This document shows, piece after piece, positions 2,570 to 22,105 of a stretch of DNA of 24,000 nucleotides. The notes beneath the pieces are model-generated. The model worked only from the letters and a program-made list of their open reading frames with translations. It was not told the DNA's origin and made no database searches. Position 1 is the first letter of the stretch; each line of letters opens with the position of its first letter. Made by a program: the position numbers and the translations under genes. This stretch comes from an uncultured Rickettsiales bacterium (GTDB lineage Bacteria; Pseudomonadota; Alphaproteobacteria; WRAU01; CAYYLE01): NCBI GenBank assembly GCA_964472375.1, contig CAYYLE010000010.1:2421-26420 (forward strand), read 5' to 3'.

Positions 2570-2678
2570 ATAGTATTAAAAGTAAAAAACACATCAAGAA
2601 AAACTTAAAAAAATTATAATGCAAAACATTGCAGAAGATAAAATATTTATAGGTATCTAATTTTTAAATCTATTTAAA

Positions 2679-2705
2679 AAAACAACCCCTGTTGTTTTAC
2701 TTTTT
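2679..2705. terminator. Weak AT-rich hairpin, possible (bidirectional) terminator
   Basis: aaaacaac (2679-2686) / gttgtttt (2691-2698) with loop ccct. It is followed by acTTTTT on the + strand and preceded by an A-run, which gives a T-run on the - strand. Only two G:C pairs, so it is weak. Confidence 0.3.
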
Positions 2706-3038
2706 AACAAAATGTTTTTATTTATTGGTTTGCTTTAAAGTCTGTTTATTTTATAAATCTTTTTAAAAAGATAAAGTACTTAAACCTTTACGCCCACAAC
2801 AGACAGCTACTAAAACACCAATCATAATAAAATATCAGTGAAATAAATAGCCTACTATGTAAGTATTTACCCTTATGCAGAATCCACAAAATTAAAGACT
2901 TTTGGTATTTTTGGCTAGGCGTGTGTTCTAGGTGTTGTATAGCACATCAACCAAAGGTGCTATCTAGCTTGTAAAAAACAACCAACAAAAACAAAAACAA
3001 ACTATGTTTTAAAATACACTTTATTTATTAAGTCCTTC

Positions 3039-4268
3039 TTAAGGTATCTTACTTAAAAAAGAAGTTCCATGATTAATTCCATCTTTAAGATTGAAATAAT
3101 CAGCTACAGTTTTAGCAACATCAGCAAGAGTTTGCCTTTCACCAATTGTTGATGCATTTTTTTGCTTGTTTTGTTTTGTAAAAACTAAAAGCGGAACTTT
3201 CTCTCGTGTATGTTGGCTATGACCAATTAAAGGGTCGTTGCCATGGTCGGCCATTATAAGTAAAACATCTTCTTTTTGCATATTATCTATTATCTGCTTT
3301 ATGCCATTGTCTGCTTTTTGTAGTATATTGTAGTACTCTAGTGCATCTTCTTTATGCCCTGCTAAGTCGGTTTCTTGTACATTTAAGCAAATAAAAGCTT
3401 TTTTGTTTTCAAGGCTTTGTAAAGACTTTATAGTATTTTCAAAAACCTTTAAGGTATCAACAGCCGGAACGCTTAAACCACTTGGGTTATATACAATATC
3501 AGCCACTTTACCAATTAAATGCACATCAATATTATTCTTACTTAAGCAATAAGGTAGTTGCTTTTTGTAATCAACACCATAACCTAAATGCACAACATTG
3601 TAACCATTGTTGTAAATACCACTTTTAGGCGTATTTATACCAAAGCTACCTTGTTTATATTCTCTTGCATCTAAAACATCATTAATTGTTACCTTAGTGC
3701 CACCAAAACATATAACACGAGTAACTTCTGTTACACTTCTAACTTTTTTGCCAATTTCTAACACTTTGTTAAAGTCTATATAATCTAAACATGCACTAAC
3801 ATTATAAGCAAGACCCTTTTGTGCCTCAATATTGTCAGCTATTGTTAATGCATTTTCTACCACAAGCAAGCTTTTTCCAAAGTCTTGGAATCTTTCTACT
3901 TTATAGCCTTCTTTTAACAAAGTATTTTCAACAGTATCTATATCTTGGTCAAATGTTTTATAGCTAGGCTTAAAAGGTGTAGAGCCCATAATTTCCTGAT
4001 GACCTTGAAAAGTATCTGCACCATAGTGCATAAGGTTAGATTGCCCATAAATACAAGATTGTGATTTTTTCATAAAATCAGTTTCAAAGCCTGCTGAGTT
4101 CATAAGCCCTAGACTTTCAAGCGTTTTTAGTTTAAAACTTGGCACTTTTTTTATTATACTTTTTATAGTATTTGAGCCTACATCTTCTTGCTTTGTTATT
4201 TTAGTATCTTCCATGTAACCTATGCCAAATCCATCTAAAACAACAACTATAAACCTACTTTTATTCAT
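3039..4268 (-). CDS. yhfW: YhfW-like phosphopentomutase-family metalloenzyme (alkaline-phosphatase superfamily)
   Basis: 409 aa (E. coli YhfW is about 408 aa). 'FIVVVLDGFGIGYMED', 'GADTFQGHQEIMG', 'VVHLGYGVD', 'GKVADIVYNPSG', 'AFICLNVQETDLAGHKED' and 'MADHGNDPLIGHSQHTREKVPLLV' are collinear with E. coli YhfW as I remember it, and with DeoB-type metal and phosphoryl-transfer motifs. It is the last gene of the operon. Confidence 0.85.
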   Translation of the reverse strand: MNKSRFIVVVLDGFGIGYMEDTKITKQEDVGSNTIKSIIKKVPSFKLKTLESLGLMNSAGFETDFMKKSQSCIYGQSNLMHYGADTFQGHQEIMGSTPFKPSYKTFDQDIDTVENTLLKEGYKVERFQDFGKSLLVVENALTIADNIEAQKGLAYNVSACLDYIDFNKVLEIGKKVRSVTEVTRVICFGGTKVTINDVLDAREYKQGSFGINTPKSGIYNNGYNVVHLGYGVDYKKQLPYCLSKNNIDVHLIGKVADIVYNPSGLSVPAVDTLKVFENTIKSLQSLENKKAFICLNVQETDLAGHKEDALEYYNILQKADNGIKQIIDNMQKEDVLLIMADHGNDPLIGHSQHTREKVPLLVFTKQNKQKNASTIGERQTLADVAKTVADYFNLKDGINHGTSFLSKIP

Positions 4269-4295
4269 AATAAAAAAACACTTTTTTAAAAGATT

Positions 4296-5450
4296 TTATT
4301 TTATTCTTTCGCCTAAAGCAGTATAAACCGCTTTTACAATTGGCTTGCCTGTGCTTATTTTATCTACAAGCACAACCTTAGCCCTTGTAGTAAATATTTG
4401 AGTTCTAAAGCAAGCTATTACAGGAGTTTCTATTTTTAGTTTAGATTTTAACCCAATGTGATAATCAATACTTTCACTATCTTGCTTGCAAACTTTGTGG
4501 GTTTTGTAATCACTTGTCAAAACATTTGCAAGATGCGACCTTCTATAATAACCACCGCCATAAATACAGCTTTTGTCTTTTAAACTATGAGAAACTGAAG
4601 AGTAATAAAGCAAAGATTGTTTTTCTTCTTGCTTGTTATTTTCCAATGCATGCAAAGGTGTTGTACCTGTTGCCCCGTTGCCAACTTCGGCATAGTTGCC
4701 ACCTTGTTTTTTCACAAGGTTTATAGTGCTTTTACATGCAACTGAAGGTAAGTTTATTTGGTTAACATTAACATCGTGTGCTTTTAAAATAGCATTTGCT
4801 TTATGTATAGTTTTAATGTTATTTGTCACTGCAACACTATTATTTTCTCTATCAAACAAAAAACAAGGAAAAGAAGTAATCCCATTTATTTTTACATATT
4901 CTAGCTTTTTAACTTCTTTTACAAAATTTTCAAATAAATCAAGCTCTACCCCGCTTTCTTGCTGTGGGTATATAGTATCTTTTGTTGCATCTAAGGGTTT
5001 TAACATTATATCTTGCACAATACCTAGCTTTTTAGCGGTTTCGTTAATTGCTTGGGCTTTTTCTAACGAATATACTGTAATAATACCAACGCCTTTTTGC
5101 ATAAAGCCTTCAAGCATTTTATTAGGGCATTGCACTAAATGACCCAAGTGAGCTATTTTTACATCATTTTTATGCATAACTTGGGCTTCTACAAAGTCTA
5201 CTGGCATAATACCTTTAAAGCCAAACTCTACTGCTTTTTGGGCTAAAAATGGGTTAAATCCTATATGTTTTGGCACAAAAAATAAATTAACACCATGTTT
5301 TTCTGCTTCTTTTACAATGCTTTGCATATTTTTGTATGTTGTTTCTAAATCAATAACATACGAATTAGGCTCAATTAAATTTTGTTTAGCTAGATAAAAA
5401 GTAGCATCTATAAAACTTTTATTACTTTTAACAAGGTTATTTAAAAACAT
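4296..5450 (-). CDS. yhfX: YhfX-like PLP-binding-barrel protein (alanine racemase N-terminal domain family)
   Basis: 384 aa. 'NLFFVPKHIGFNP' is a candidate PLP-lysine context. 'HLGHLVQCP', 'ITVYSLEKA', 'SFPCFLFD', 'CIYGGGYYRRSH', 'SIDYH' and 'CFRTQIFTTR' match remembered E. coli YhfX blocks. Its start codon lies 2 nt after the yhfS stop. Confidence 0.8.
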   Translation of the reverse strand: MFLNNLVKSNKSFIDATFYLAKQNLIEPNSYVIDLETTYKNMQSIVKEAEKHGVNLFFVPKHIGFNPFLAQKAVEFGFKGIMPVDFVEAQVMHKNDVKIAHLGHLVQCPNKMLEGFMQKGVGIITVYSLEKAQAINETAKKLGIVQDIMLKPLDATKDTIYPQQESGVELDLFENFVKEVKKLEYVKINGITSFPCFLFDRENNSVAVTNNIKTIHKANAILKAHDVNVNQINLPSVACKSTINLVKKQGGNYAEVGNGATGTTPLHALENNKQEEKQSLLYYSSVSHSLKDKSCIYGGGYYRRSHLANVLTSDYKTHKVCKQDSESIDYHIGLKSKLKIETPVIACFRTQIFTTRAKVVLVDKISTGKPIVKAVYTALGERIK

Positions 5451-5452
5451 GT

Positions 5453-6547
5453 TTAGCTTATATAATCCATAGTTTTATTTAAAATATTTACAACAGTAAA
5501 GGCACTTGCCCGCATTGGGTTAACCCTTATAAAATAATCTTTCATTTTTGGGTTATCTTTTTGAAAAGTCCCTGAAACATTATAAACCATAGGGGCAATT
5601 TCATATTTTGACTCTGCACCAACAGGGTAAGAAACCGCCCCAAACAATACAGCATTTTCAACCACTTTGCTAGCAATAGGGCTTTCAAGCTCTATTATTG
5701 CAACTTTTGACTGTGCATTTGCTACAAAAGCTTTTTTTAAGCCTTTGATTTTTGTGCTGTTTATAGTATTTACAAGGTTTTCAACCTCTTTTGCCTGTAT
5801 TGCAAGGGCAACAGGTGCATACACAAGCCCTCTTAGGCATTCTAACGCCTCATGCCCTTGTACTTTACTACCACCTGAATAATTAGCTTTACTTATAAAA
5901 TCATAAAGTTCTTTTTTACAAACAATACAGCCAATGCCTTCTTTACCAAGCAATTTAAATAAAGAAAAACAAGAAACATCAGCCCCTAGCTCTACTCCTA
6001 TTTTTTCAACTTTCATAACTGCATAGTTATCGTCTGTTATTATGTTTATATCTTTAAAATTTTCTTTAATGTGTTTTATAAAGTCTTTAGCACTGTAATA
6101 ATCAGTAATTTTTTGCCTTGTTATTTGCAATAAAACAGTTTTTATATTATTTTCTTCAATGGTTTTACAAACACTTGCAAGGTTATGAAAATCTGCCTCA
6201 AAAATATTTGCCTGTAAATCTTGTAAGCTAGAAAGCGTTGTAGGGTAAACAGGTGCATTGTGTACTAAAATATTTTTATTTTCTTGCAAATAATACCTTA
6301 AAGCATAGTATATTGCCCCAGTGCCTGCATTACGCACAAGCTTTGCATGAGGAAAATTAAAAAAATCAGCTATTGTGTTTTCTGTTAGGCTTGTGTGTTT
6401 TGGCTGTAGCCCATCTTTAAAAATTCCAACTTGCCCAAGCTCTAAAATCTCATTATTTTTAAAATTTTTAGTTATTTTATCAACAAGTTGAAACTGTTTT
6501 TCTTGTGCTTGCTCTAAGGTTATTGATTTAAGAACATAACTTTCCAT
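5453..6547 (-). CDS. yhfS: YhfS-like PLP-dependent (fold type I, aminotransferase/SelA-like) enzyme
   Basis: 364 aa. 'NAGTGAIYYAL', 'VHNAPVYPTT', 'TDDNYAVMKV', 'FSLFKLLGKEGIG' (candidate PLP Lys), 'YSGGSKVQGHEALECLRGLVYAPV', 'ANAQSKV', 'YPVGAESKYEIAP' and 'RVNPMR' are collinear with remembered E. coli YhfS. Confidence 0.8.
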   Translation of the reverse strand: MESYVLKSITLEQAQEKQFQLVDKITKNFKNNEILELGQVGIFKDGLQPKHTSLTENTIADFFNFPHAKLVRNAGTGAIYYALRYYLQENKNILVHNAPVYPTTLSSLQDLQANIFEADFHNLASVCKTIEENNIKTVLLQITRQKITDYYSAKDFIKHIKENFKDINIITDDNYAVMKVEKIGVELGADVSCFSLFKLLGKEGIGCIVCKKELYDFISKANYSGGSKVQGHEALECLRGLVYAPVALAIQAKEVENLVNTINSTKIKGLKKAFVANAQSKVAIIELESPIASKVVENAVLFGAVSYPVGAESKYEIAPMVYNVSGTFQKDNPKMKDYFIRVNPMRASAFTVVNILNKTMDYIS

Positions 6548-6564
6548 CTTTTTTTTAAACCTTT

Positions 6565-7437
6565 TTACAAATTAAAAATTCTTTTAGGATTTGTAACTAG
6601 TGTTTTGTGTAAGGTTTGCTCTAAAACACCATGTTTTAATGCATTTTTTACAAAGTTATCTAACAAATAGTTATAACCAATTCCACCTTTATCTTTTAAA
6701 TGGCTATTGTAGGTCAAGTCAACCGACATTGTGATTTGGTTGGCAAAGCCTTGTTTTTCAACTTCTTTTAAAAGCTCTATTCTATTTTCATCAAGGTTGT
6801 ATTTGGTTTTTCCTATGGTATCAAAGGCAATATTTACCCCTGTTTTTAAAATATCTATAACATAATTAGCATCTTTAGATAAATCCATATGCGATATTAC
6901 AACAGTTTCAAGGTTAACTTTTTCTTGCTTAAATAGCTCAACCTGCTCTTTAGCAAGTGTAGCAAGTGTTGTGTGGGTTACAATAGGTATATTAAGCTTT
7001 TTAGCGACATATGAAGATGCTTTAAATAGCTTAATTTCAATATCGCTTAAAAAATCTCTTTTATCTGTTCCTATTTCACCTATCACCCTTGCTTTAATAT
7101 TTGTGCCATCAATGCCTTGTGTTATTTCTTTTTCTATAAAATCAGCTATTTGTTCTTTGGTAAAAATATAGGCTTCTTCTGGTAAGTAGGGCTCTTTATA
7201 ATACCCTGTTGATTGCAAAATATTTATACCTGTTTTTTCAGATATTTCTTGCACTTTTAAAGGGTTTCTGCCCATTCCTTTTGCTGTAACATCAACAATA
7301 TAGTCAACACCTTTTTGCTTTAACTCTTTAAGCTCTTTTATTGTTTGGCTTGTATTGTCTATAAACCTATCTTGTTTATCTTCTGTGCGTAAATCTAAAA
7401 CCATATGCTCGTGTGCATAAACCATATGTTTAAACAT
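6565..7437 (-). CDS. php: Phosphotriesterase homology protein (amidohydrolase superfamily, binuclear metal centre)
   Basis: 290 aa (E. coli Php is 292 aa). 'YAHEHMVLDL' (HxH), 'GMGRNP', 'TGINILQSTGYY', 'QGIDGTNIKARVIGEIGT' (Glu at the bridging-ligand position), 'VTHT', 'ISHMDL', 'AFDTIGK', 'MSVDL' and 'SHLKDKGGIGYNYLL' give a near block-for-block match to E. coli Php. Confidence 0.9.
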   Translation of the reverse strand: MFKHMVYAHEHMVLDLRTEDKQDRFIDNTSQTIKELKELKQKGVDYIVDVTAKGMGRNPLKVQEISEKTGINILQSTGYYKEPYLPEEAYIFTKEQIADFIEKEITQGIDGTNIKARVIGEIGTDKRDFLSDIEIKLFKASSYVAKKLNIPIVTHTTLATLAKEQVELFKQEKVNLETVVISHMDLSKDANYVIDILKTGVNIAFDTIGKTKYNLDENRIELLKEVEKQGFANQITMSVDLTYNSHLKDKGGIGYNYLLDNFVKNALKHGVLEQTLHKTLVTNPKRIFNL

Positions 7438-7458
7438 AACAAAACCTTTTTAAAAAAA

Positions 7459-8742
7459 TTAAAACAAACTAGGTAAAGCCAGAATGTTTACTAAAATACC
7501 CGTAAAAATTGCTGCAACAGGTCCTATTACCATTTCAACAAGAGGTTTTTTAACTATTTTGTTAAATGTATACAAAGTAACTAAAACAAAAATACCAATA
7601 TTAGGGTCAATTTGGTAGCAAGCCATTGCACCACCTGCAAGTAGTGATATTTCTAAAACTTTATTGGTTGCTGTTCTTATATAATCACCACATTTTCTTA
7701 CCCCTGGTGATTTATCTAAAACAACTGCAATTTTGTTTAATAGCAAAACCTCGCAAGCTATTGCTACTGCACCTGCAAAAAATGCTAAAATTGGTTGGTC
7801 AATCAATAAAAGACCAACTACAAAAACTATTTTCATACCAGAAGGTGAATAAACCCCCGTTGCAATTGCTGTTGTAGCCACAAGAGGTATAAAGCCCAAA
7901 GCCCTTGCAAAAGATGCTAAAGTAGCCTCGCTATATTTACCATCGCTAAGTAAAGCTTGTGATATTGGACCTTCTGCCATAATAACAAGAGAAGAAGCAA
8001 CAGCAACAAAGCCACCTGTAATTGCTAAAAGCAAAATGTTTGACTTTATGCGTTTAACTCTTTCAGAAAATATCTGCAAAAGCTGTTGGTTGCTGTTTTG
8101 GTTGTCTGTATTTTTTTCTCTTATTGCTATTGCAAGCATAACAACCATACCAAAAGCTAAAGACATTCCAATAGGCTCTAAAGTAACCTTATAAGATGCA
8201 ACTTCAAAACTACCTAACATTTTTAAGCTCTGGTAAAATAAAGCTGTTGCAATTGCAAGTGCAAATCCCTTAAAAGAGCCATAAACACCACCAATAACCA
8301 AAGCAGGGAATACTGCAAAACCAATCATTACAGGTTTACCGATTAAAGCCATTGCAGGTAAAAAATCAATCGGTAGCAGGGCAAAAATATCAACAACTAT
8401 TTCTAACCCTTTTAAAATAGCATAACCAAAAACACCACCTGTTACAAAAGATGCTAAAGACCCCTTATTGTTATTGGGAAAAAAAGTTCCTATAATATCT
8501 GTACCAAGCAAAATACTATGCACAAGCAATACTTTTGTTGCAATAGATATTGGTATACCAAAACCAATAAGTAACCCAAAACTCATTGCAAAAGATGTTG
8601 TAGCAAGGCTTGCTTTGTTTATTCTACCTTCTACAAACTCTGGAATTATCGGTCTTAAACCATCATTAAAAACTGCTATATTTTTGTTTGCAAGCAAGCT
8701 TGAAAAACTTGCCACTAATATTATTGCTATATAAGGTAACAT
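7459..8742 (-). CDS. yhfT: YhfT-like polytopic inner-membrane permease
   Basis: 427 aa and highly hydrophobic, with roughly 10-12 predicted TM stretches. N-terminal 'AVFNDGLRPIIPEFVEGRINK' matches E. coli YhfT 'AVFHDGIRPILPQLIEGYMNR'. 'GFIPLVATTAIATGVY' is also shared. Confidence 0.8.
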   Translation of the reverse strand: MLPYIAIILVASFSSLLANKNIAVFNDGLRPIIPEFVEGRINKASLATTSFAMSFGLLIGFGIPISIATKVLLVHSILLGTDIIGTFFPNNNKGSLASFVTGGVFGYAILKGLEIVVDIFALLPIDFLPAMALIGKPVMIGFAVFPALVIGGVYGSFKGFALAIATALFYQSLKMLGSFEVASYKVTLEPIGMSLAFGMVVMLAIAIREKNTDNQNSNQQLLQIFSERVKRIKSNILLLAITGGFVAVASSLVIMAEGPISQALLSDGKYSEATLASFARALGFIPLVATTAIATGVYSPSGMKIVFVVGLLLIDQPILAFFAGAVAIACEVLLLNKIAVVLDKSPGVRKCGDYIRTATNKVLEISLLAGGAMACYQIDPNIGIFVLVTLYTFNKIVKKPLVEMVIGPVAAIFTGILVNILALPSLF

Positions 8743-8760
8743 GTTAAGACCTGTGTTTTT

Positions 8761-9123
8761 TTACAATGTATTATTAATCAGCCTTATAACAATAGGAACA
8801 ATAAAATCACTTGACTGTGCTACAAAACCAAAAGCTTTTTTGCCTTCATTAAATACTTTTGTTATTTCTTCTTCATTCATTGTATTGCCAGGTGATGCAA
8901 GCGTTATACAGCTTTCTACACCAACAAGTGCAATAGGCATTGCCAAAGCACCGCCTCCGCCTGTCATACACGCACCTAGATAGTAATCAACCTCATTATT
9001 TTTTAGTGCCATTGCTCCTTCAAGGTCTGACATTACTTGAAACTCAATGCTAGAATGTGCATACTTTTTTGCTATTTCTAGCACTTTTTCTTTTTCTATC
9101 TGCCCTGCTATTGCTATTTTCAT
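8761..9123 (-). CDS. yhfU: YhfU-like DUF2620 protein
   Basis: 120 aa (E. coli YhfU is about 117 aa). 'MKIAIAGQ...', 'DLEGAMALKNNEVDYYLGACMTGGGGALAMPIAL' matches the family 'D.EAAM.VK.G.LDYYIGAC.TG.G.AL'. Its ATG shares one nucleotide with the yhfY stop (TAATG). Confidence 0.75.
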   Translation of the reverse strand: MKIAIAGQIEKEKVLEIAKKYAHSSIEFQVMSDLEGAMALKNNEVDYYLGACMTGGGGALAMPIALVGVESCITLASPGNTMNEEEITKVFNEGKKAFGFVAQSSDFIVPIVIRLINNTL

Positions 9124-9491
9124 TAAGCTACTCCTTCATTTTCTAATACTAAAGATGAAAGGTATATTAAAACATACTCTTTCTCTCCTTTATCAAACTC
9201 TAAACCTATAACTTGCTCTACTTTTTTTAGCTCTTTTTCTGCTGTTTTTAGTGTTTTTTCATCAAGCTCTTGCAAAATATCTGCCACATCTAAAGTTTCT
9301 GCTTTGTTTTCTTTTATTCTTTGCAAAGCTTTTGCAAGGTGGATAAAAAACATAGACCCTGCACTTTCTTCTACCTTAAACCCTTGGTTTTTAAACATTT
9401 CTACTGTTTTTAAAACATCTTCAAAGGTCTTATCATCTATTTGGTTGCTATCTTTTAGAAGTGAAATCTTACCTTTTAAGTCTAAGTTCAT
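9123..9491 (-). CDS. yhfY: YhfY-like stand-alone PRD-domain protein
   Basis: 122 aa (E. coli YhfY is about 120 aa). It is helical, with the PRD-type 'FFIHLAKALQRIKENK' histidine context. An AGGTGA Shine-Dalgarno lies 6-7 nt upstream of the ATG. Confidence 0.7.
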   Translation of the reverse strand: MNLDLKGKISLLKDSNQIDDKTFEDVLKTVEMFKNQGFKVEESAGSMFFIHLAKALQRIKENKAETLDVADILQELDEKTLKTAEKELKKVEQVIGLEFDKGEKEYVLIYLSSLVLENEGVA

Positions 9492-9506
9492 TTATTTATC
9501 ACCTAC

Positions 9507-10424
9507 TTAATATTCAGGAATTATTTGACCACTAACAACCTTTTGCTGGTAAGCAATAACCTCTTTACTATCAATTGCCATTTTAAGTATTGTTTTTAAT
9601 AAAGTATTATCCCTGTGAACAACAAGGGCTGCTTCTGTAAAGTCTGTATTGTATGTTATATCTTCAAGAATTATTTTATTTTCATCTATACCTGCAATTG
9701 CAGATTGCTGAAAACTCCAAACTGTTGCATCTATTGTAGAAGAACGCAATGAGTCTAGAATTTTGTAAGAGCTTAAGTTTTTGTATGTAATTTTTTTATC
9801 TTTAAAGCTATCATGCTCAGTAAGTTTAGCAACAAGTAGCTTATGGTCTTGCGACATAATATCAACACCCATTGTAATATTTTGTTTTTCAAGACAATCT
9901 TTATTATAAATAGCCATATGCTTTTGTACATAAGAGCCTTTACCAAAACTTTTAACAACTTCTAATTTACTTTCTTTATCACTTTTTAGGTAGGTATCTA
10001 TTGCATGTTTAGATACTATTGTAAAGTCATATATTCTGTCTTCTGTTCGCAAAAGCCTGTTTAAAGCCCCTCTTGTATAAGCAAAAGATGCCCTTGTATA
10101 GTTGTGCAACATTGCAATTATAGAGCTTGCTAAACCTTCATAAAGCTTTGAGTAAGGCAAAGGCATAGAACCTAAAATATGGTTGATTTCTGCATATTCT
10201 AAAAGCTTACTATAGTCAATGGTATCTATAAATGTTCCTGTTTGCCCCTTAGAAACAAAAGAAACAACACCTTCTTGCTCTAGTAGTTTTATGGCTCTTT
10301 GAACAATTCCACGCGAACTACCTGCTAAAATGCAGTATTCATCTACTGTTTTTATTCTATCGTTTTGATTATAAATAAATAAGTCTTGTGCTATTTGCTT
10401 AACAACTTTTTGTGTTTTATTCAT
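9507..10424 (-). CDS. yhfZ: YhfZ-like transcriptional regulator (N-terminal GntR-type winged HTH plus C-terminal YhfZ/periplasmic-binding-like domain)
   Basis: 305 aa (E. coli YhfZ is about 301 aa). 'IKTVDEYCILAGSSRGIVQRAIKLLEQEGVVSFVSKGQTGTFI' is a typical GntR-like wHTH. It is the first gene of the eight-gene operon, immediately downstream of the promoter/operator candidate. Confidence 0.75.
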   Translation of the reverse strand: MNKTQKVVKQIAQDLFIYNQNDRIKTVDEYCILAGSSRGIVQRAIKLLEQEGVVSFVSKGQTGTFIDTIDYSKLLEYAEINHILGSMPLPYSKLYEGLASSIIAMLHNYTRASFAYTRGALNRLLRTEDRIYDFTIVSKHAIDTYLKSDKESKLEVVKSFGKGSYVQKHMAIYNKDCLEKQNITMGVDIMSQDHKLLVAKLTEHDSFKDKKITYKNLSSYKILDSLRSSTIDATVWSFQQSAIAGIDENKIILEDITYNTDFTEAALVVHRDNTLLKTILKMAIDSKEVIAYQQKVVSGQIIPEY

Positions 10425-10450
10425 ATCTCTTGTTTTTTTAGATAAAAGTA

Positions 10451-10464
10451 TACAATATATTGTA
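10451..10464. promoter_or_regulatory. Perfect 14-bp palindrome TACAATATATTGTA, candidate operator of the yhf operon
   Basis: TACAATATATTGTA equals its own reverse complement. It is flanked by the related hexamers GTATAC (10448-10453), TGTACA (10461-10466) and TATACA (10471-10476). It lies 27-40 nt upstream of the yhfZ ATG, just downstream of a consensus -10 box. Confidence 0.4.
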
Positions 10465-10468
10465 CATT

Positions 10469-10474
10469 ATTATA
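10469..10474 (-). promoter_or_regulatory. Consensus -10 hexamer (TATAAT on the minus strand) for the yhfZ operon
   Basis: The minus strand reads ...TAGTTGgctatttgaggtatttgTATAATaatgtacaatatattgta... This is a perfect TATAAT with a weak -35 (TAGTTG) at 17-nt spacing. In an AT-rich genome a TATAAT can occur by chance. Confidence 0.35.
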
Positions 10475-10532
10475 CAAATACCTCAAATAGCCAACTATTT
10501 TTTCATAAGTTTTACTAAAAGCTAAAAAGTCT

Positions 10533-12902
10533 TTACTTTCTCTTTTTGTGAAACTTACCTGACTTACTTGTTTTTTTAAATTGTTTTCCTCTTCCTTCTT
10601 TGCTTTTTCCTCTAAAAGAGTGACCTTTATTAGCATGCCTACTAAAAGGTACAAAATCAACAGCTGGGTAAAAAGCAATTAACCCTCTTAAAACATCAAC
10701 TTCTGCTATTTTAACTTCAATTTTATCACCTAGTTCATACCTTTGCTTGGTGTGAGAGCCTTTTAAAACCCCTCTTCTACCGTCAAAGATAAAATCATCA
10801 TGGTTTAAAAACCTCATTGGCACTAAACCTTTAACAAAATAATTATCTAAAAGCACAAAAATACCTGACTTTGTAACCGATGTTATTTTTGCAGTGTAGA
10901 TTTTATTTTCTTTTACTTCTTTTTCAAAATGCTTTGCTATTATTCTATCTATGCTGTTGTATTCTGCACTTGCAGCCCTACGCTCTTTTGCAGAAATATC
11001 TTTAGCAATATCAACAATATCTTTGTTTTTGGCAAAATCTTTTTTGGCTAAAATATCTTTAATAATTCGGTGAACAATAAGATCTGAATATCTTCTAATA
11101 GGAGAAGTAAAGTGTGCATAGTCTTTTAACGCTAGCCCAAAATGACCTATGTTTTCGTTTGAGTATTTAGCTTGCGATTGTGTTTGTAAAATTGACTTAT
11201 AAACCAAATCTTTGTTTTCATTATGCTTAAAATCATCAATAATTTTATTAAAAAAACTACCATTAATCTTATTTTTAGTATCTAGTTTATATTTAAAGTG
11301 CTTTAAAGTCTCTTTTAATTGAATTATCTTAGCAAAATCAGGCTTTGCATGAATACGAAACACAGCATTATCAGTAAAACCATTTTCTTGAATAAACAAA
11401 GCAGCACAAACATTTGCCAAAACCATAAATTCTTCAATAATTTTATTGCTGGTTTTAGAATAAACCCTTTGTATTTGGGTTATATTCTCATTTTCATCCA
11501 TTAATATTTTAGTTTCTGGTAGGTCAATTTTTAAAGCCCCACGCAAAATACTACTTTTGTGCAAAACCTTAAAACACTCATGCAAATTCGCTATAAGCTC
11601 TTGAATATTTTCATCTATGCCTTCCCTATTACCTTCTTCTATAAAAGATTGTACCTTTTTATAGGTTAAACGAGCATGAGACCTTATTAAAGCATTTGTA
11701 AAGTTGTATTTTAAAATATCACCTTTGCCGTTTATATAAATATGTAAAGCAATGGCTTTTCTTTCCTTATTAGGAACCAAAGAACATAGGTTGTTAGAAA
11801 GCAAAGGAGGAAGCATAGGCACAACCATATTAGGCAAATAAACTGAGTTTGCTCTTAATAGTGCTTCTTTATCTAGTGCTGAATTTTTCTTTACATAGTG
11901 TGCAACGTCTGCAATTGCTACAATAATATGAAAGCAATTTTTGTGGTTTTTATCTTCATAAGGCTTGCAATATACAGCATCGTCAAAGTCTTTTGAATCA
12001 TCACCATCTATTGTTACAAGAGGGATATTTGTTAAATCTTCACGATTTTGTGTTGCATCATGTTCTTTTATTAAAGTTGTTTCTTTTAAAACATCTTCAG
12101 GGAACTCAATAGGTATGTGAAGCTCTTTTAAGCTTAAAAGGCTTAAAGATAGTAAATCATTTTCTTTATGCACAAGTTGTATAAAATCAGCTTGGCTATT
12201 TTCATGTAAGATACTATCTTCACTTAAAGGGTTGGTAAACTTTACAATATCGCCTTCTTTTACATACTCTGGCACAGAATAAACAGTAAAGCTTTTTCTA
12301 ACCCCAAAAGTTATGCTTTTAACAAGGGCTTTATTTTCACCTTCAAGGCTTGTTACCCTACCTGTTATAACATTTTTGTTGTTAATATCATCAACTGTTA
12401 TATCTTCAATTGCTTTTTTATTTAGCTTGTATTCTTCTAAAGGGCTTTGATTTTGCACTAGTTTTTTTAAAGTTGGTGCATTAACTATTATTTTACTACC
12501 TTCAACTTTAACAATTCTTACTACAAGGTCTTTGTTTAAATAGTCTTTAGAGTAGTTTTCAAGCACTATTTCAGCATCTTTAAAAACCTTACTAGCTTTT
12601 TTGGTAGTTATTTGGCAATAAGGCTTACCTTGTTTGTTTAAAAGCACCTTTACTTTAAGGTTTTTAGGCAAAGATTTTGTGCTGTTAAACTCAAGGTCAT
12701 TAATTTGGTAAATTTTACCGATTTTAAATATACTTTTGTCTTTTACTAGTTTTTTAAGCTTTCTTCTTACATGGTGCTTTTGGCTTAACTCAATCTTAAA
12801 ATTACTTAAAATAGCACTTAAAGTTGCCTGATTTTTATTGCTTTTAATAAAGTCTAAAATAGCTTTACTTTCAGGCAGGTTTTTGTTTTCTAGCTCACTC
12901 AT
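10533..12902 (-). CDS. rnr: Ribonuclease R (3'-5' exoribonuclease, RNB family)
   Basis: 789 aa. RNB-domain blocks 'TIDGDDSKDFDDAVY', 'VAIADVAHYV', 'SVYLPNMVVPMLP' and 'HFGLALKDYAHFTSPIRRYSDLIVHR'. A C-terminal S1-like domain is followed by a lysine/arginine-rich tail. Confidence 0.92.
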   Translation of the reverse strand: MSELENKNLPESKAILDFIKSNKNQATLSAILSNFKIELSQKHHVRRKLKKLVKDKSIFKIGKIYQINDLEFNSTKSLPKNLKVKVLLNKQGKPYCQITTKKASKVFKDAEIVLENYSKDYLNKDLVVRIVKVEGSKIIVNAPTLKKLVQNQSPLEEYKLNKKAIEDITVDDINNKNVITGRVTSLEGENKALVKSITFGVRKSFTVYSVPEYVKEGDIVKFTNPLSEDSILHENSQADFIQLVHKENDLLSLSLLSLKELHIPIEFPEDVLKETTLIKEHDATQNREDLTNIPLVTIDGDDSKDFDDAVYCKPYEDKNHKNCFHIIVAIADVAHYVKKNSALDKEALLRANSVYLPNMVVPMLPPLLSNNLCSLVPNKERKAIALHIYINGKGDILKYNFTNALIRSHARLTYKKVQSFIEEGNREGIDENIQELIANLHECFKVLHKSSILRGALKIDLPETKILMDENENITQIQRVYSKTSNKIIEEFMVLANVCAALFIQENGFTDNAVFRIHAKPDFAKIIQLKETLKHFKYKLDTKNKINGSFFNKIIDDFKHNENKDLVYKSILQTQSQAKYSNENIGHFGLALKDYAHFTSPIRRYSDLIVHRIIKDILAKKDFAKNKDIVDIAKDISAKERRAASAEYNSIDRIIAKHFEKEVKENKIYTAKITSVTKSGIFVLLDNYFVKGLVPMRFLNHDDFIFDGRRGVLKGSHTKQRYELGDKIEVKIAEVDVLRGLIAFYPAVDFVPFSRHANKGHSFRGKSKEGRGKQFKKTSKSGKFHKKRK

Positions 12903-12922
12903 AAGTGCCTTTCTTTTGTTTT

Positions 12923-15334
12923 TTAAGTTTTCTTAATCTTTTTATCAATCAAGGCAATAGCTTCTTCAAGGGTTATTTTAAAAGGGTCATATTCTTTTAC
13001 AACTCTAATATTAACACCATCAAAAGGAATATAAGCACCAAAGCGACCAAACTTTATAGCAACATCTTTTCTTTTATACTTACCTAGCTTAATGCCTTCT
13101 TTTTTAATACGGTTTTGCTCTATTGCTTCTATTGCACTTTCTTTATTTACTGTAAAAATATCTTGCTTGTATGATACAAAATCACTACCGTGTTTTAAGT
13201 AAGGACCAAAGCGACCAATTGAAAGTGAAACATCTTTACCTTCATAATCTGTAACATGGTAAGGTAGCTTTAATAAAAAATAAACTTTAGAAGCATCTAA
13301 AGAGCCAACCTCAATACCATCTGGAATTGAAACCTTCTTCATTTTACCTTCGTGCATACCTTCTATATAGTATCCATAAGGTCCTTTTTTTACCTTTATA
13401 TTATCGTCTAAACTATCGTTTATAGAAAGGCTATCTTCCCCTTGCTCATCACTATTTGTGTTAAAGCTAGAAACATAATTACAATCAGGGTAATTAGAGC
13501 AACCAATAAAACCACCAAACTTACTTGTTTTAATTACAAGGTTACCATCTTTACAAGTTGGGCAATTTCTATCTTCTCCTATTAAAAGGTCAGATAAACA
13601 CTCTGTAAGCCTATCTGCAACAGCTAAAGGACTTAGTTCTTTTGCAGTTTCAACATTTTCATTAAATTCAGTCCAAAAGTCTTTAAGCATTTCAATTTGG
13701 CTTGCTTGCCCGTTTGATACACTATCAAGCCTATCCTCCATATCAGAGGTAAAAGTATATTCTACATATTTTGTAAAAAATGCCATTAAAAATTCAGATA
13801 ACAAAATCCCTCTATCTTCTGGCACAAGCTGTTTATTGGTCAGCTTTACATACTCCCTTGCTTGCAATACAGCAATAATAGGAGCATAGGTTGATGGTCT
13901 TCCTATTCCTAGTTCTTCTAGTTTTTTAATCAAACTTGCTTCGTTGTATCTAGGTGGGGCTTGAGTAAAGTGCTTTGTTCCCTCAAAGTCAACTGATTTT
14001 AACTCTTGCCCAATTTCAAGCTCTGGTAATATATTTTCAACAAGGTTATCTTGACCATATAAAATACTAAAGCCTTTAAAAGCAATTGTAGAACCACTTT
14101 TATAAAATTCTATTTTAGAATCATCATTTGCAATATGTAACCCAACTAAGTTATATTTTATTGCACTCATTTGGCAAGCAAGTGTTCTATTCCAAATTAA
14201 TGTATATAATTTTAGTTGCTCTGATGTTAGGTAGTTTTTTACCTTTTCAGGGCTGTTTTCCATAGAGGTTGGTCGTATTGCTTCGTGTGCCTCTTGTGCA
14301 TTTTTTGTTTTTCTTTTGTATAAAACAGGCTTATCAGTTAAATATTCTTTGGTGTATTTTTTACCTATATAATCTCTTAAAGAGTGCAAAAAGCTACCTT
14401 CAAGGTCTGTTCCATCTGTTCTCATATAAGTTATTAAACCAACGGTTTCTTTCCCTAGTGATATCCCCTCATAAAGCTTTTGTGCAACTTGCATTGTTTG
14501 CCTTGTGCTAAAAGATAGCTTTCTTGCTGCATCTTGTTGCAAAGTTGAGGTTATATAAGGAGGGTAAGGTTTTCTTGAGCTTACTTTTTTAACAATATCT
14601 TTAACTTTAAACGATTGTTTTTTAATCTTGCTTAAAATATCGTTGCATTGTTTTTCGTTTTCAATATCAAGCTTTTGTAGTTTATTGCCATTAAATATTG
14701 TTAGGTCTGATAATATTTCTTCTTTTTTTGCTGTTTCAAAAGCACCTACAACTTGCCAATACTCTTGATTTACAAAGCTTTTAATTTCTTTTTCACGCTC
14801 TGTTATAAGCTTTAATGCAACTGATTGCACCCTACCAGCCGAGCGCGCACCTGGAAGCTTTCTCCATAAAACTGGTGATATTCCATAACCAACTAAATAA
14901 TCAAGTGCTGTTCTGCCTAAATATGCATTTACAAGGTTATCGTTTAAATCTCTTGGGTTTTCAAAAGCTTTAAGAACGCTATCTTTAGTAATAGAAGTAA
15001 AAGTAACCCTTTTAACAGGTTTTTTAGCAAGTAATTTTTTATCTTTTAAATAATTAATAATATGCCAAGAAATAGCCTCTCCTTCCCTATCAGGGTCGGT
15101 TGCAAGTATTAATTCATCACATTTTTTAACCCACTCAACTATTGGTTTGGTGTGTTTTTTCCCCTGTGGAGTAAGCTCCCACTTCATTGCAAACTTATTT
15201 TCAACATCAATAGAGCCACTTTTAGAAACAAGCTTTCTAATATGCCCATAACTTGCAATCACCTTGTAATCTTTACCAAGGTACTTGTTAATAGTTTTTG
15301 ACTTAGCAGGTGATTCAACTATTACTAACTTCAT
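12923..15334 (-). CDS. topA: DNA topoisomerase I (type IA)
   Basis: 803 aa. TOPRIM 'MKLVIVESPAKSKTINKYLG' and 'LATDPDREGEAISWH'. Active-site region 'GLITYMRTDGT' and 'SAGRVQSVALKLI'. C-terminal Zn-ribbon 'CPTCKDGNLV...GCSNYPDCNY'. Confidence 0.95.
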   Translation of the reverse strand: MKLVIVESPAKSKTINKYLGKDYKVIASYGHIRKLVSKSGSIDVENKFAMKWELTPQGKKHTKPIVEWVKKCDELILATDPDREGEAISWHIINYLKDKKLLAKKPVKRVTFTSITKDSVLKAFENPRDLNDNLVNAYLGRTALDYLVGYGISPVLWRKLPGARSAGRVQSVALKLITEREKEIKSFVNQEYWQVVGAFETAKKEEILSDLTIFNGNKLQKLDIENEKQCNDILSKIKKQSFKVKDIVKKVSSRKPYPPYITSTLQQDAARKLSFSTRQTMQVAQKLYEGISLGKETVGLITYMRTDGTDLEGSFLHSLRDYIGKKYTKEYLTDKPVLYKRKTKNAQEAHEAIRPTSMENSPEKVKNYLTSEQLKLYTLIWNRTLACQMSAIKYNLVGLHIANDDSKIEFYKSGSTIAFKGFSILYGQDNLVENILPELEIGQELKSVDFEGTKHFTQAPPRYNEASLIKKLEELGIGRPSTYAPIIAVLQAREYVKLTNKQLVPEDRGILLSEFLMAFFTKYVEYTFTSDMEDRLDSVSNGQASQIEMLKDFWTEFNENVETAKELSPLAVADRLTECLSDLLIGEDRNCPTCKDGNLVIKTSKFGGFIGCSNYPDCNYVSSFNTNSDEQGEDSLSINDSLDDNIKVKKGPYGYYIEGMHEGKMKKVSIPDGIEVGSLDASKVYFLLKLPYHVTDYEGKDVSLSIGRFGPYLKHGSDFVSYKQDIFTVNKESAIEAIEQNRIKKEGIKLGKYKRKDVAIKFGRFGAYIPFDGVNIRVVKEYDPFKITLEEAIALIDKKIKKT

Positions 15335-15345
15335 CTTGCTTCCTA

Positions 15346-16482
15346 TTATAATACTTTTTCTTTCTCTTCTTGCACTAACAAGCTTACCTTGTTACCCAAG
15401 TAACGGGTTACAATACCACATAATTCCATTTCTAGCAAAATTGTAGAAACACTTTGGTAATCTAAACCGCTTTCTCTTACTATTAAATCAACCTCTAAAG
15501 GGTCATAAGAAAGTATGTTTTGTATTTTTTCTCTATCTTTGTTGCTTATTTTTCTATCTTCCTGCATTGCAAAAGCAATTGGCTTAGCTATTTCGTTACC
15601 ATCTTCATTAAGCTCTAGTTTGTTAACAATATCTAAAACATCTTGGTAGCTTTGCACAAGGCTTGCACCTTTTTGTATTAAAATATTATTACCATTGCTT
15701 TGCTTGTTAAAAGGCGAGCAAGGAAGTGCCATAACAGCTCTTTTTTGTTTTTCTGCAAGGTTTGCTGTTATAAAAGCACCTGATTTTGCAGATGATTCTA
15801 CAACCAAAACCCCCCGAGACATACCTGTAATAATACGGTTTCTCATAGGAAAAAACGAAGCTTGTGGCTTAGTATTGCATTTAAACTCTGATATTACTAC
15901 ACCTTTTTCTACTATTTCATCAAAAAGTTTTTGGTTTTCTTTAGGGTAAACAACATTCACACCACAACCAAGCACTGCACTTGTGCCTTTTTCAACCGCT
16001 GCAGTATGTGCAAAAGAGTCAATTCCTTTTGCAAGACCTGAAACAATATTAAACCCATTGCTTGATAAATGATAAGCAAAGTTTTCAGCTATTTGTTTAC
16101 CATTAACCGAACTATTACGAGAGCCTACAATAGATATTGATTTTTTCTTAAGTAAGTTAACATTACCTTTTGCAAAAATAATTGGTGGTTTATCTTCAAT
16201 TTTTGTAAGTAAAGATGGGTAGTTTTCACTAAAATAAGGAATAATATGCACATTGTCTTTATAACATTGCTCTATTTCTTTTAGTGCATCTTCTTTACTG
16301 CATAGTGTAAAAGGTTTAGTGTTTTTATAGCTAGCATCTTCTAGCATTTTTGGTATGTTTTCTACTGCATTTGTGGCTGTTTTAAACTTATTTATAAGCT
16401 TAAAAAAAGTTATGTTGCCTATGCGTGGTGTTCTTATAAGCCTTAATGTGTTTAAAATCTCATTATCAAGACCTTTTATCAA
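15346..16482 (-). CDS. dprA: DNA-processing protein DprA (Smf)
   Basis: 378 aa. 'LIRTPRIGNITFFKLI', 'SIVGSRNSS..G', 'IVSGLAKGIDSFAH', 'AVLGCGVNVVYPKEN' and 'FPMRNRIITGMS' match the DprA Rossmann core. The start overlaps the plsY 3' end by 17 nt. Confidence 0.9.
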   Translation of the reverse strand: MIKGLDNEILNTLRLIRTPRIGNITFFKLINKFKTATNAVENIPKMLEDASYKNTKPFTLCSKEDALKEIEQCYKDNVHIIPYFSENYPSLLTKIEDKPPIIFAKGNVNLLKKKSISIVGSRNSSVNGKQIAENFAYHLSSNGFNIVSGLAKGIDSFAHTAAVEKGTSAVLGCGVNVVYPKENQKLFDEIVEKGVVISEFKCNTKPQASFFPMRNRIITGMSRGVLVVESSAKSGAFITANLAEKQKRAVMALPCSPFNKQSNGNNILIQKGASLVQSYQDVLDIVNKLELNEDGNEIAKPIAFAMQEDRKISNKDREKIQNILSYDPLEVDLIVRESGLDYQSVSTILLEMELCGIVTRYLGNKVSLLVQEEKEKVL

Positions 16483-17053
16483 AGCGACCTTCCTCTTTAT
16501 TTATAAGCCTTATAATGTTGCTTTTATGCATTGTTATTGATACTAAACTTATAGTATTAATAGCTAAAATAGTAATTAAATCTTCTACAATAAAAAAACT
16601 AGCAATTGAAATTGCTACAAAAGATGTTAAAGCAGCTAAAGAAGAATATCTAGTAAACTTAAAAACAACAACCCAAGTTACTAAAAATATTAGTGCAATT
16701 TCATAGCCGAAAATAAACATTGTGCCTATTGATGTTGCAACACCTTTACCACCTTTAAAACCAAGCCAAACAGGAAAAATATGCCCTAAAACAGCAAAAA
16801 CACCAGCAACATATGCAAAATTATGCCCTAAAAAATGCTTTGCTAAAAGTGCTGCTATTAAACCTTTTAATAAATCCAATAAAAGTGTAATAACTGCGAT
16901 TTTTTTAAAACCTGACCTGTAAACATTTGTTGCACCTATGTTTTTAGAGCCTACTTGCCTTAAGTCAACCCCTTTCAAAGTTTTAACAAGTACAAGACCA
17001 TAAGGCACAGAACCTAAAAAATACCCTAACAATACTGCGTATAAATATTCCAT
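16466..17053 (-). CDS. plsY: Glycerol-3-phosphate acyltransferase PlsY (acyl-phosphate dependent)
   Basis: 195 aa membrane protein. 'GYFLGSVPYG', 'GSKNIGATNVYR', 'DLLKG' and 'GHIFPVWLGFKGGKGVAT' are canonical PlsY motifs. Confidence 0.92.
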   Translation of the reverse strand: MEYLYAVLLGYFLGSVPYGLVLVKTLKGVDLRQVGSKNIGATNVYRSGFKKIAVITLLLDLLKGLIAALLAKHFLGHNFAYVAGVFAVLGHIFPVWLGFKGGKGVATSIGTMFIFGYEIALIFLVTWVVVFKFTRYSSLAALTSFVAISIASFFIVEDLITILAINTISLVSITMHKSNIIRLINKEEGRFDKRS

Positions 17054-21388: not shown

Positions 21389-22105
21389 CTAATTTATTTC
21401 TTTTTTTGCTAAAACAGTAGCAACAAGAGAGTTACCTGTTACATTAACCGATGTTCTTAGCATATCAAACAATCTATCAACATCTAAAATAAGTGCAATA
21501 CCATCAACAGGAATATGCTTTGCATTAATATCATGGTTAACCCAACTGAAGGAACGCCAGCTGTACCAATTGATACTAAAACAGCTAAAGAAACAATGGA
21601 TGCATAATCTATAATTGACATATCAACCGTATACATTAACTAAAACACGGTTGCTATACCTTGCATTATTGCAGTACCGTTCATGCTTATAGTTGCACCT
21701 AAAGGAAGAGCAAAACTAGAAATATCGTTAGAAACACCTAAAGGTGCAACTTTCATTATAATATCATTAAGCCCATTAAAAGTCTTTCTAAATGTTTAAA
21801 AAACCTTTAACAGCTCCTGCGTGTTCTTTTTCTATTTTTAAAACAACAATGTCAATAAGCAGCGTAATCACTATTAGTTGCAGCATATTTGAAGAAACCA
21901 TAGGCGAAAGTGTATTACTAGGAACATATCTAAAAAAACACAGCTGTTGCTATTGCAAAAAAAACAATTGCAAGCGATATTGATGAAATCATAAAAACAC
22001 TATTGTTTTAGCACATAAGCTTGCAAACCTTAAAATACTACCTACATTTATATACCAAGTGTTAAATAAGAAAATACAACAGGAACAGTAATAAGACTTA
22101 TTAAT
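21389..22105 (-). pseudogene. Decayed dicarboxylate/amino-acid:cation symporter (DAACS, GltP/DctA family) gene
   Basis: No ORF of 60 aa or more on this strand, but minus-strand translation gives collinear DAACS blocks in different frames. 'LITVPVVFSYLTLGI*', 'GSILRFASLCAKTIVFL*', 'NMLQLIVITLLIDIVVLKIEKEHAGAVKGFLNI*'. Then 'NGLNDIIMKVAPLGVSNDISSFALPLGATISMNGTAIMQGIATVF*LMYTVDMSIIDYASIVSLAVLVSIGTAGVPSVGLTMIL', and after a frameshift 'IPVDGIALILDVDRLFDMLRTSVNVTGNSLVATVLAKKEIN*' (stop at 21389-21391). There is an in-frame TAG at 21640-21642. About 85 aa appear deleted at the APLGV|SNDISSF junction (about 21731-21739). The N-terminus and start codon are missing. Confidence 0.8.

Follow-up and report, generated by a model that had tools for sequence, protein, structure and literature searches.

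Relatives of the yhf/php genes, a conserved Escherichia coli cluster without known function, occur in at least 533 species, and one complete set lies within 24,000 nucleotides of contig CAYYLE010000010.1 from an uncultured Rickettsiales bacterium (this whole stretch, 31% G+C, is referred to as the window). The locus raises the question of how a small-genome, host-associated alphaproteobacterium came to carry such a set of genes and what use is made of it. All eight genes of a known, widespread and uncharacterized operon are present and intact at the locus, which is not a new kind of system. With moderate confidence, we read it as a functional copy, most likely acquired horizontally, that would serve as a self-regulated salvage module, taking up and breaking down a small nutrient. 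Selective maintenance of an apparently foreign 7.4-kb catabolic operon in a bacterium of this type suggests that such a nutrient is to be had in the host environment.

Gene content, gene order and source of the operon

Eight adjacent minus-strand open reading frames (ORFs) were called from 10424 to 3039, a span of approximately 7.4 kb, and each was matched to its named yhf/php family by Pfam, NCBIfam and BLASTP against the E. coli proteins, in agreement with the identities proposed in the initial annotation. The first gene, yhfZ (9507-10424), encodes a transcription regulator with an HTH_41 domain and a YhfZ_C ligand-binding-type domain (NCBIfam YhfZ_full) and is followed by yhfY (9123-9491), encoding a stand-alone PRD-domain protein (Pfam PRD, E 2e-7). 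Next are yhfU (8761-9123), a DUF2620 gene (E 3e-40) whose product has a predicted RpiB/LacAB-like fold and an invariant Cys52-x-Thr54, and yhfT (7459-8742), encoding a polytopic membrane protein presumed to be a permease (Pfam YhfT, E 2.5e-146). The php gene (6565-7437) encodes a phosphotriesterase-homology protein, a binuclear-metal amidohydrolase of the lactonase/esterase type (Pfam PTE, E 5e-64). Two pyridoxal phosphate (PLP) enzymes follow: the product of yhfS (5453-6547) is of fold type I and nearest to lyases of cysteine and methionine metabolism (Pfam YhfS-like_C, E 1e-39), and that of yhfX (4296-5450) is of fold type III with an alanine-racemase-like barrel (Pfam YhfX-like_C and Ala_racemase_N). 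The last gene, yhfW (3039-4268), encodes a YhfW-type phosphopentomutase-like metalloenzyme (NCBIfam PRK12383).

The proteins from YhfZ to YhfW are 305, 122, 120, 427, 290, 364, 384 and 409 aa long, each within a few residues of the E. coli counterpart as had been claimed. The genes form a contiguous, co-directional unit, and the tight packing described earlier was reproduced exactly in the ORF list, with gaps of 15, -1 (a TAATG overlap), 18, 21, 17, 2 and 27 nt, the largest being 27 nt. BLASTP against E. coli K-12 gave full-length identities of 29-45% for seven of the proteins and 25% for YhfY (E 1e-7). The NCBIfam equivalog cutoffs were exceeded by YhfZ (YhfZ_full, 265.1 bits vs. 260) and YhfW (PRK12383, 522 vs. 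254) and were not reached by Php (PRK09875, 231 vs. 486); no NCBIfam model matched YhfU, YhfT or YhfX, and YhfS matched weak SufS models only, below their cutoffs.

The statement that no function has been assigned to any member was borne out: none was found in the full-text literature searched under the gene names, the b-numbers, DUF2620 or cog1735, and the RefSeq names are all 'putative' or 'uncharacterized'. Literature matches to two b-numbers (b3379, b3383) led to the name of a plasmid and to a table of sigma-54 candidates. The belief that only Php has a crystal structure was mistaken, as structures of YhfS (4j8l), YhfX (4kbx) and the C-terminal domain of YhfZ (2ozz) are also in the Protein Data Bank (PDB); by sequence, YhfU, YhfT and YhfY have no solved relative there.

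One genome per species was scanned for YhfT. At least 533 genomes contained a relative, and the 80 best loci were analyzed by calling ORFs and assigning them with phmmer. Every gene was co-directional in the surveyed clusters. The order Z-Y-U-T-php-S-X-W found in the window was the commonest, with 31 complete examples among the 80 loci plus partial cases, and five loci from Pasteurellaceae had the order Y-X-W-U-T-php-S. The E. coli order Z-Y-X-W-php-U-T-S beside frl (frlABCDR) was verified in NC_000913, and among the 80 species it recurred once only, in Providencia. Since the blocks [Z-Y], [U-T], [php-S] and [X-W] persist across four gene orders, the gene set behaves as a module. The earlier idea of a module with shuffled order thus holds as regards the module and the difference from E. 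coli, but the window order is the standard one and it is the E. coli order that is rare.

The E. coli K-12 cluster (b3383-b3376) consists of the same eight families, likewise contiguous and co-directional, with the window proteins showing 25-45% full-length identity to it; it differs in gene order and in lying beside frl, and the window Php falls below the NCBIfam equivalog score. The divergent members also differ, being YhfT and YhfU in E. coli (42 and 8 deviations, respectively) and Php, YhfS and YhfX in the clade of the window. These 42 and 8 deviations, in yhfT and yhfU of the E. coli locus (L001, 11033-12702), concern positions conserved to at least 95% among the other 81 taxa. The E. coli enzymes deviate at 0-2 positions each, making the transport pair the unusual part of that cluster. 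A different arrangement, Y-T-php-S-X-W-T-U, was seen in two metagenome-assembled genomes (MAGs) of Bacillota and Negativicutes (L003 and L005), with a second yhfT and an NYN-domain gene before yhfU. The cluster as typical plasmid cargo was ruled out, as YhfT was found on only 6 of 72,556 plasmid records, which were megaplasmids or mis-filed chromosomes. In a few species the cluster is nevertheless located on large secondary replicons, such as plasmid p118 of Entomospira entomophila and a 705-kb replicon of Cetobacterium somerae.

TopA of the window was nearest to alphaproteobacterial proteins (46-52% identity), namely those of MAGs, 'Rickettsiales bacterium LUAb2', Rhodospirillales and Pelagibacteraceae. 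In contrast, the best matches of all eight Yhf/Php proteins were in Clostridiaceae (35-56% identity), and no alphaproteobacterium was present among the 80 best YhfT loci. Two complete, more distant relatives (OZ026533.1, L088, 1.105 Mb; OZ026535.1, L089, 1.383 Mb) keep plsY-dprA-topA-rnr; after rnr both have rpmG and then further genes, with no yhf operon in the 22 kb inspected in each. Window positions 10533-17053 are syntenic with both, the differences being the yhf operon and a DASS transporter/cdd region. A sister species (82% identical in YhfT, 79% in TopA) carries all eight genes, likewise ordered Z-Y-U-T-php-S-X-W, at another site, between rnc-era and an lplA-like gene, whereas a strain with 91% DNA identity to the window (L090) has the operon at the window's site.

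These sequence comparisons are most simply read as an ancient acquisition of the complete operon from a Clostridia-like lineage, after which it was either relocated or inserted a second time in the clade. Acquisition is suggested because TopA is alphaproteobacterial, the best matches of the operon are clostridial, the operon is absent at the rnr site of the two relatives and it occupies a different site in the sister species. Clostridiaceae clusters, such as those of Desnuesiella massiliensis, Fonticella tunisiensis and Clostridium tertium, are identical to the window in gene order and have the same palindromic motif approximately 30-40 nt upstream of yhfZ. Unlike the window, many of them contain an additional amidase-like gene, placed either 3' of yhfW or in the yhfT-php interval, and a second predicted operator between Z and Y; they also keep approximately 22 residues replaced in the window clade.

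The initial annotation had instead described the operon as retained, that is, as an ancestral gene set inherited vertically through genome shrinkage, with the order relative to E. coli explained by shuffling of the module. The intact frames and purifying selection are compatible with such a history, as are a G+C content and a G+C content at third codon positions (GC3) equal to those of the flanks, a nearby pseudogene indicating gene loss and the occurrence of the operon in three members of the clade. However, the discordance between TopA and the Yhf/Php proteins, the site differences among relatives and the match to Clostridium in both gene order and operator position speak against it; 'retained' is probably wrong, and vertical inheritance is considered unlikely.

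That operon and flanks best match different phyla could also mean that DNA of a Clostridium-like contaminant was joined to alphaproteobacterial DNA during assembly, and the contigs with near-identical DNA, whose numbers run into the tens or hundreds of thousands, do look like bacterial contigs within eukaryote host assemblies. Nevertheless, assemblies and read sets obtained independently, 99.7% and 91% identical to the window, show both junctions, rnr-yhfZ and yhfW-pyrD-like. GC3 does not differ between the operon and its surroundings, and identity to any Clostridium is just 35-56%. An assembly artefact is therefore a very improbable explanation. The same provenance bears on the suggestion that the locus would be a good model: the organism is uncultured and apparently represented only by contigs in eukaryote host assemblies, and the system is also available in E. 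coli, Clostridium and Enterococcus. The window copy neither solves the function of the cluster nor offers a convenient model organism.

Predicted control of the operon

A candidate promoter was found upstream of yhfZ by consensus scan and consists, on the minus strand, of a -35-like hexamer TTGAGG (10481-10486) and a -10-like hexamer TACAAT (10459-10464) separated by 16 nt. A TATAAT is also present at 10469-10474, without a well-spaced -35 element. The TACAAT hexamer lies inside the left half of a palindrome, GTACAATATATTGTAT (10450-10465; 26-41 nt upstream of the yhfZ ATG), of the form RTAC-N8-GTAY. Indeed, this form (consensus ATATACAAAATATTGTACATT) was present between -200 and +40 of the first cluster gene in 51 of the 80 loci, compared to approximately 2.6 loci expected by chance from a background density of 0.138 per kb. 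The palindrome precedes yhfZ where that gene is first and yhfU in the Enterococcus-type order. There were only two matches in the whole window, the other (ATACTTTTTATAGTAT, 4156-4171) being approximately 100 nt inside yhfW and probably a chance occurrence.

Because the palindrome overlaps the promoter of an operon that opens with a GntR-type helix-turn-helix (HTH) gene, it is the likely operator of YhfZ. The window YhfZ is 29% identical to that of E. coli over its full length, matches HTH_41 (E 1e-11) and is related to the structure 2ozz (E 4e-23); an N-terminal winged-helix HTH together with a palindrome at its own promoter would fit a GntR-type repressor. A second copy of the palindrome was found at the yhfZ-yhfY junction in 30 loci, many of the Clostridium type (e.g. 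L007, L008 and L013), and is absent in the window. The junction copy suggests that yhfZ is controlled separately from the remaining genes in those Clostridium-type clusters.

YhfY may be the second component of this regulation. His51, Arg58 and Glu103 are invariant across 79 family members including the window copy, and PRDs open to phosphorylation are usually recognized by a His and a following Arg. Since the Z and Y genes are neighbors in every surveyed locus in which both were detected and YhfY keeps these three residues, YhfZ and YhfY are provisionally read as a two-part regulator.

The transcript must end in the 469-nt non-coding stretch 3' of yhfW (2570-3038), where scans found no ORF, no Rfam or tRNA signal and no canonical terminator. 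This stretch contains a 7-bp hairpin (approximately 2939-2963) without a T-run. It is missing in L090, in which yhfW is followed, after 16 nt, by a convergent pyrD-like gene. Within the operon, the terminator scan gave a single match, in yhfW, fewer than the chance expectation, which together with the short gaps favors a single transcription unit. Rfam and tRNA scans of the whole window were empty, and thus the operon has no riboswitch or RNA element by these scans.

The enzymes, YhfU and YhfT

Php of the window keeps the HEH and SVD (SxD) metal motifs, scored 217 bits against the PTE cutoff of 22.4 and was closest in the PDB to E. coli Php (1bf6/4lef, E 2e-53). The phospho-sugar lactonases of COG1735 (Lmo2620 type) share with Php the PTE-family amidohydrolase fold and the HxH...D metal motifs, but Php matched the NCBIfam 'phospho-furanose lactonase' only weakly (82 bits vs. 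a cutoff of 630), so that a lactonase activity of Php is proposed by analogy. YhfW, 45% identical to its E. coli homolog, matches solved DeoB-type phosphopentomutases in the catalytic core only, which suggests the same chemistry on a different substrate.

The two PLP enzymes were matched to solved relatives. YhfX (4kbx, E 2e-75) keeps Lys61 in the motif VPKHIGFNP, and YhfS (4j8l, E 2.5e-89) has the invariant PLP-lysine K198. The YhfS family profile was nearest, after YhfS itself, to methionine gamma-lyase, YnbB-type C-S lyases and cysteine desulfurases (E 1e-9 to 1e-6 overall and 1e-9 to 1e-7 for the lyases), and for this reason an elimination or lyase reaction appears at least as likely as the transamination implied by the RefSeq name.

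A ninth gene, encoding a divergent amidase-signature protein, was found inside or beside the cluster in 45 of the 80 loci, though not in the window or in E. coli. Its product of approximately 370-430 aa has a GSSS...GSDGGGS motif (e.g. L004, 11455-12585; L019, 17126-18418) and scored 23-26 bits against Pfam Amidase, just below the cutoff of 27. Of these loci, 18 have the gene in the yhfT-php gap, 22 have it after yhfW and five have it upstream, on the other strand. Other recurrent neighbors were beta-lactamase-family hydrolases (nine loci), NagB-like isomerase/deaminases (nine), Cof-type phosphatases (six) and nucleoside hydrolases (six), none of which is present in the window or in E. coli. 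At the level of protein families, the enzyme set and these extra genes suggest that the pathway degrades a conjugate in which an amino-acid part is joined to a phosphorylated, sugar-like part.

YhfU, the DUF2620 protein, was modeled with AlphaFold (AF2) on 36 homologs with a predicted local distance difference test (pLDDT) score of 95.8, and the top 50 Foldseek matches in the PDB were inspected. The best were isomerases of the RpiB/LacAB type, with template modeling (TM) scores of 0.58-0.73 for RpiB and the highest for 3s5p_B (0.73, probability 1.0); flavodoxin-like, CheY-like and B12-binding domains scored much lower. The invariant family motif DYY-x-GAC-x-TGGGGAL was the sole region to align with RpiB-type proteins in three independent sequence tests. 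In hhalign it was placed on E. coli RpiB 49-75, with Cys52 on Cys66, Thr54 on Thr68 and the invariant Cys52-x-Thr54-Gly55 on RpiB 66-69; a profile search of PDB sequences gave the RpiB/LacAB-like 2ppw and 3c5y on the same segment, not significantly; and Pfam LacAB_rpiB (PF02502) gave E. coli YhfU 13.6 bits on the motif segment, against a cutoff of 24.7. The window YhfU did not match PF02502. RpiB uses Cys66 and Thr68 as its catalytic pair, and in both proteins the Cys-x-Thr-Gly follows the third strand (Cys66-Gly-Thr68-Gly in RpiB). YhfU is shorter (120 aa), has an invariant Gly-Gln in place of the N-terminal Asp-His of RpiB and lacks the His-Asn that RpiB has after strand 4. The description that fits YhfU best is that of a distant and shortened RpiB/LacAB relative in which the Cys-x-Thr dyad is conserved and the other RpiB residues are not. 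We favor an isomerase-like role; a role associated with transport is possible given the near-constant adjacency to YhfT, which was found in nearly all 80 loci.

YhfT itself was predicted to be all-helical (AF2, pLDDT 77), and a HMMER search of 1.84 billion representatives found only 268 relatives and no link to a wider superfamily. The pairing with YhfU could be explained by group translocation resembling the phosphotransferase system (PTS), with YhfT as an EIIC-like permease, YhfU as an EIIB-like phospho-cysteine carrier, a substrate phosphorylated on entry and YhfY as the sensor of the phosphorylation state. A PRD protein with an invariant His, an invariant Cys in YhfU and the near-constant U-T adjacency would all be accounted for, and phosphate would be supplied without a kinase in the cluster. 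Against such a system, the top 50 structures for YhfU included RpiB/LacAB proteins and no PTS EIIB, and the Cys of YhfU is placed after strand 3 in C-x-T-G, as in RpiB, whereas that of EIIB is located in the first loop. Furthermore, YhfT has no fold similarity to solved EIIC proteins, the cluster has no EIIA and YhfU and YhfT gave no weak matches to PTS Pfam families up to E 10. EIIB/EIIC identities for YhfU and YhfT were set aside as less likely on the absence of EIIB from the YhfU matches and the TM score below 0.2 for YhfT, and PTS-like translocation as a whole is doubtful.

Selection, residue replacements and the proposed working of the module

The claim of active selection on the operon was supported by comparison with the 91%-identical strain, in which dN/dS (nonsynonymous to synonymous substitution rates) was 0.147 for yhfZ, 0.179 for yhfY, 0.183 for yhfU, 0.071 for yhfT, 0.121 for php, 0.171 for yhfS, 0.187 for yhfX and 0.094 for yhfW. 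This range (0.07-0.19) is like that of flanking rnr (0.095), topA (0.071) and plsY (0.091); the value for flanking dprA was 0.294. The low ratios imply that the operon is kept by selection.

Per-family alignments of the 80 loci and E. coli were used to compare the window with columns at least 95% conserved in all others. The window deviated at 39 of 425 such columns, 22 of them in Php, YhfS and YhfX (6 + 8 + 8), the highest number among 82 taxa. The corresponding totals were 12 for the Sneathia locus, 10 for the Brevinema locus and 4 for E. coli; in mean identity to other species, the window is slightly below E. coli. The replaced residues lie beside catalytic motifs and are otherwise invariant in approximately 78 species including E. 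coli. In the core motifs, for Php, the consensus DLS..K reads DLRTEDK in the clade and SMDiTRkSH reads SVDLTYNSH; for YhfS, RGAGTxAiR reads RNAGTGAIY and FKllGPeG reads FKLLGKEG; and for YhfX, MtKQxGRNP reads VPKHIGFNP and EPGHaltG reads EVGNGATG. The individual replacements include S17R, K20D, R243Y and P264K in Php; D39Q, G73N, R80Y, P202K and Q228K in YhfS; M59V, Q62H, R65F/Y and H258N in YhfX; and H37S and D150Q in YhfW. The catalytic His, Asp and Lys are kept, three Arg are lost and Lys or Arg are gained elsewhere. Nearly all replacements recur in L090 and in the sister species; across these two lineages and the window, protein sequences diverge by up to approximately 40%.

Such a number of departures might indicate a decaying or functionally dead relic, in which the replacements mark loss of activity and the frames are intact by chance or recent history. 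Losses elsewhere in the genome and the mostly weak Shine-Dalgarno sequences of the operon genes would be in keeping with decay. However, dN/dS is low, the catalytic residues are retained, the replacements are old and have been conserved since they arose, and no frameshift or stop was found across 7.4 kb in any of the three lineages, so that a relic is a distinctly improbable account. A tentative alternative is that the clade carries a re-specified Yhf pathway, with coordinated replacements in the four enzymes after acquisition, in which a charged group of the substrate would be bound differently, because of the Arg losses and the Lys/Arg gains, and a different compound would be used. Fixation of slightly harmful, AT-biased changes in a symbiont of small population size is a competing account; the low dN/dS and the clade-wide conservation of the new residues favor a remodeled pocket, not decisively. 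If the pathway is indeed re-specified, the replaced positions would mark substrate-recognition residues for the whole orphan family and, with the RpiB-like DUF2620 protein and the amidase-like gene, provide concrete handles on the substrate.

For the salvage module, we propose the following working, in which the parts are observed and the chemistry is inferred. YhfZ would bind the palindrome over the -10 element and repress a single eight-gene transcript until an inducer meets its C-terminal domain, and YhfY, through invariant His51, would modulate YhfZ on a phosphorylation signal. YhfT would import the compound. Php, as a binuclear-metal hydrolase whose characterized relatives open phospho-sugar lactones, would act on a sugar-phosphate-like part, on which YhfW would move the phosphate group; YhfU, with its RpiB/LacAB-like fold and Cys-x-Thr, would act as an isomerase. 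YhfX, of the racemase type, and YhfS, closest to beta/gamma-lyases, would handle an amino-acid-like part. As many species add the amidase-like ninth gene, the compound normally used is probably an amino acid joined through an amide bond to a phospho-sugar or sugar acid. The operon of this clade would have come from a Clostridia-like source, fully adopted the host composition, remained under purifying selection and had the residues around its catalytic motifs remodeled, which may reflect an altered substrate.

Several points weigh against an acquired salvage module of this kind. The chemistry of all members is drawn from family resemblance, and the cluster has no kinase or phosphorylase to provide the phosphate assumed for YhfW, YhfU and Php. 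YhfU is below the Pfam LacAB_rpiB threshold and is without the N-terminal Asp-His of RpiB, and its constant pairing with YhfT could mean a role in transport; the YhfT model has no PDB fold match (TM < 0.2) and no recognizable transporter fold. The transfer is based on best hits and synteny and not on a rooted phylogeny, and given the 22 kb inspected per relative genome, the operon could sit elsewhere in those genomes. Lastly, the clade substitutions lean to residues with AT-rich codons (Y, F, K and N) and could reflect mutational bias and weak selection in a small-genome symbiont.

The window copy nevertheless contributes to a set of comparative leads on the orphan cluster, namely the signs of acquisition by a small-genome alphaproteobacterium, the likely YhfZ operator, the isomerase-type fold and motif of DUF2620, the affinity of YhfS to lyases and not to transaminases, the frequent amidase partner and the clade-specific positions, which may line the substrate pocket.

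Gene decay does occur near the operon, as is evident from a fragmented transporter gene. The transporter pseudogene reported approximately 11 kb away was confirmed as SDF-family fragments (Pfam SDF, E 7e-22): at 21389-21901 on the minus strand, three short ORFs (fragments 21389-21756), when joined, correspond to Pfam SDF 270-386 of a sodium:dicarboxylate symporter. On the other side of the operon, at 766-2569 on the plus strand, a pyrF-like gene (126 bits, above the TIGR01740 cutoff) is followed by two weaker ORFs, one of 136 aa with a faint phosphoribosyltransferase match and one of 255 aa of the DHO_dh family (71 bits vs. a cutoff of 269). These ORFs could represent pyrimidine genes that have diverged or are in decay, and L090 shows the same arrangement. 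Finally, a 285-aa ORF at 22196-23053 on the minus strand matches no Pfam or NCBIfam family; its N-terminus resembles a signal peptide, and it may encode an outer-membrane protein of the clade.

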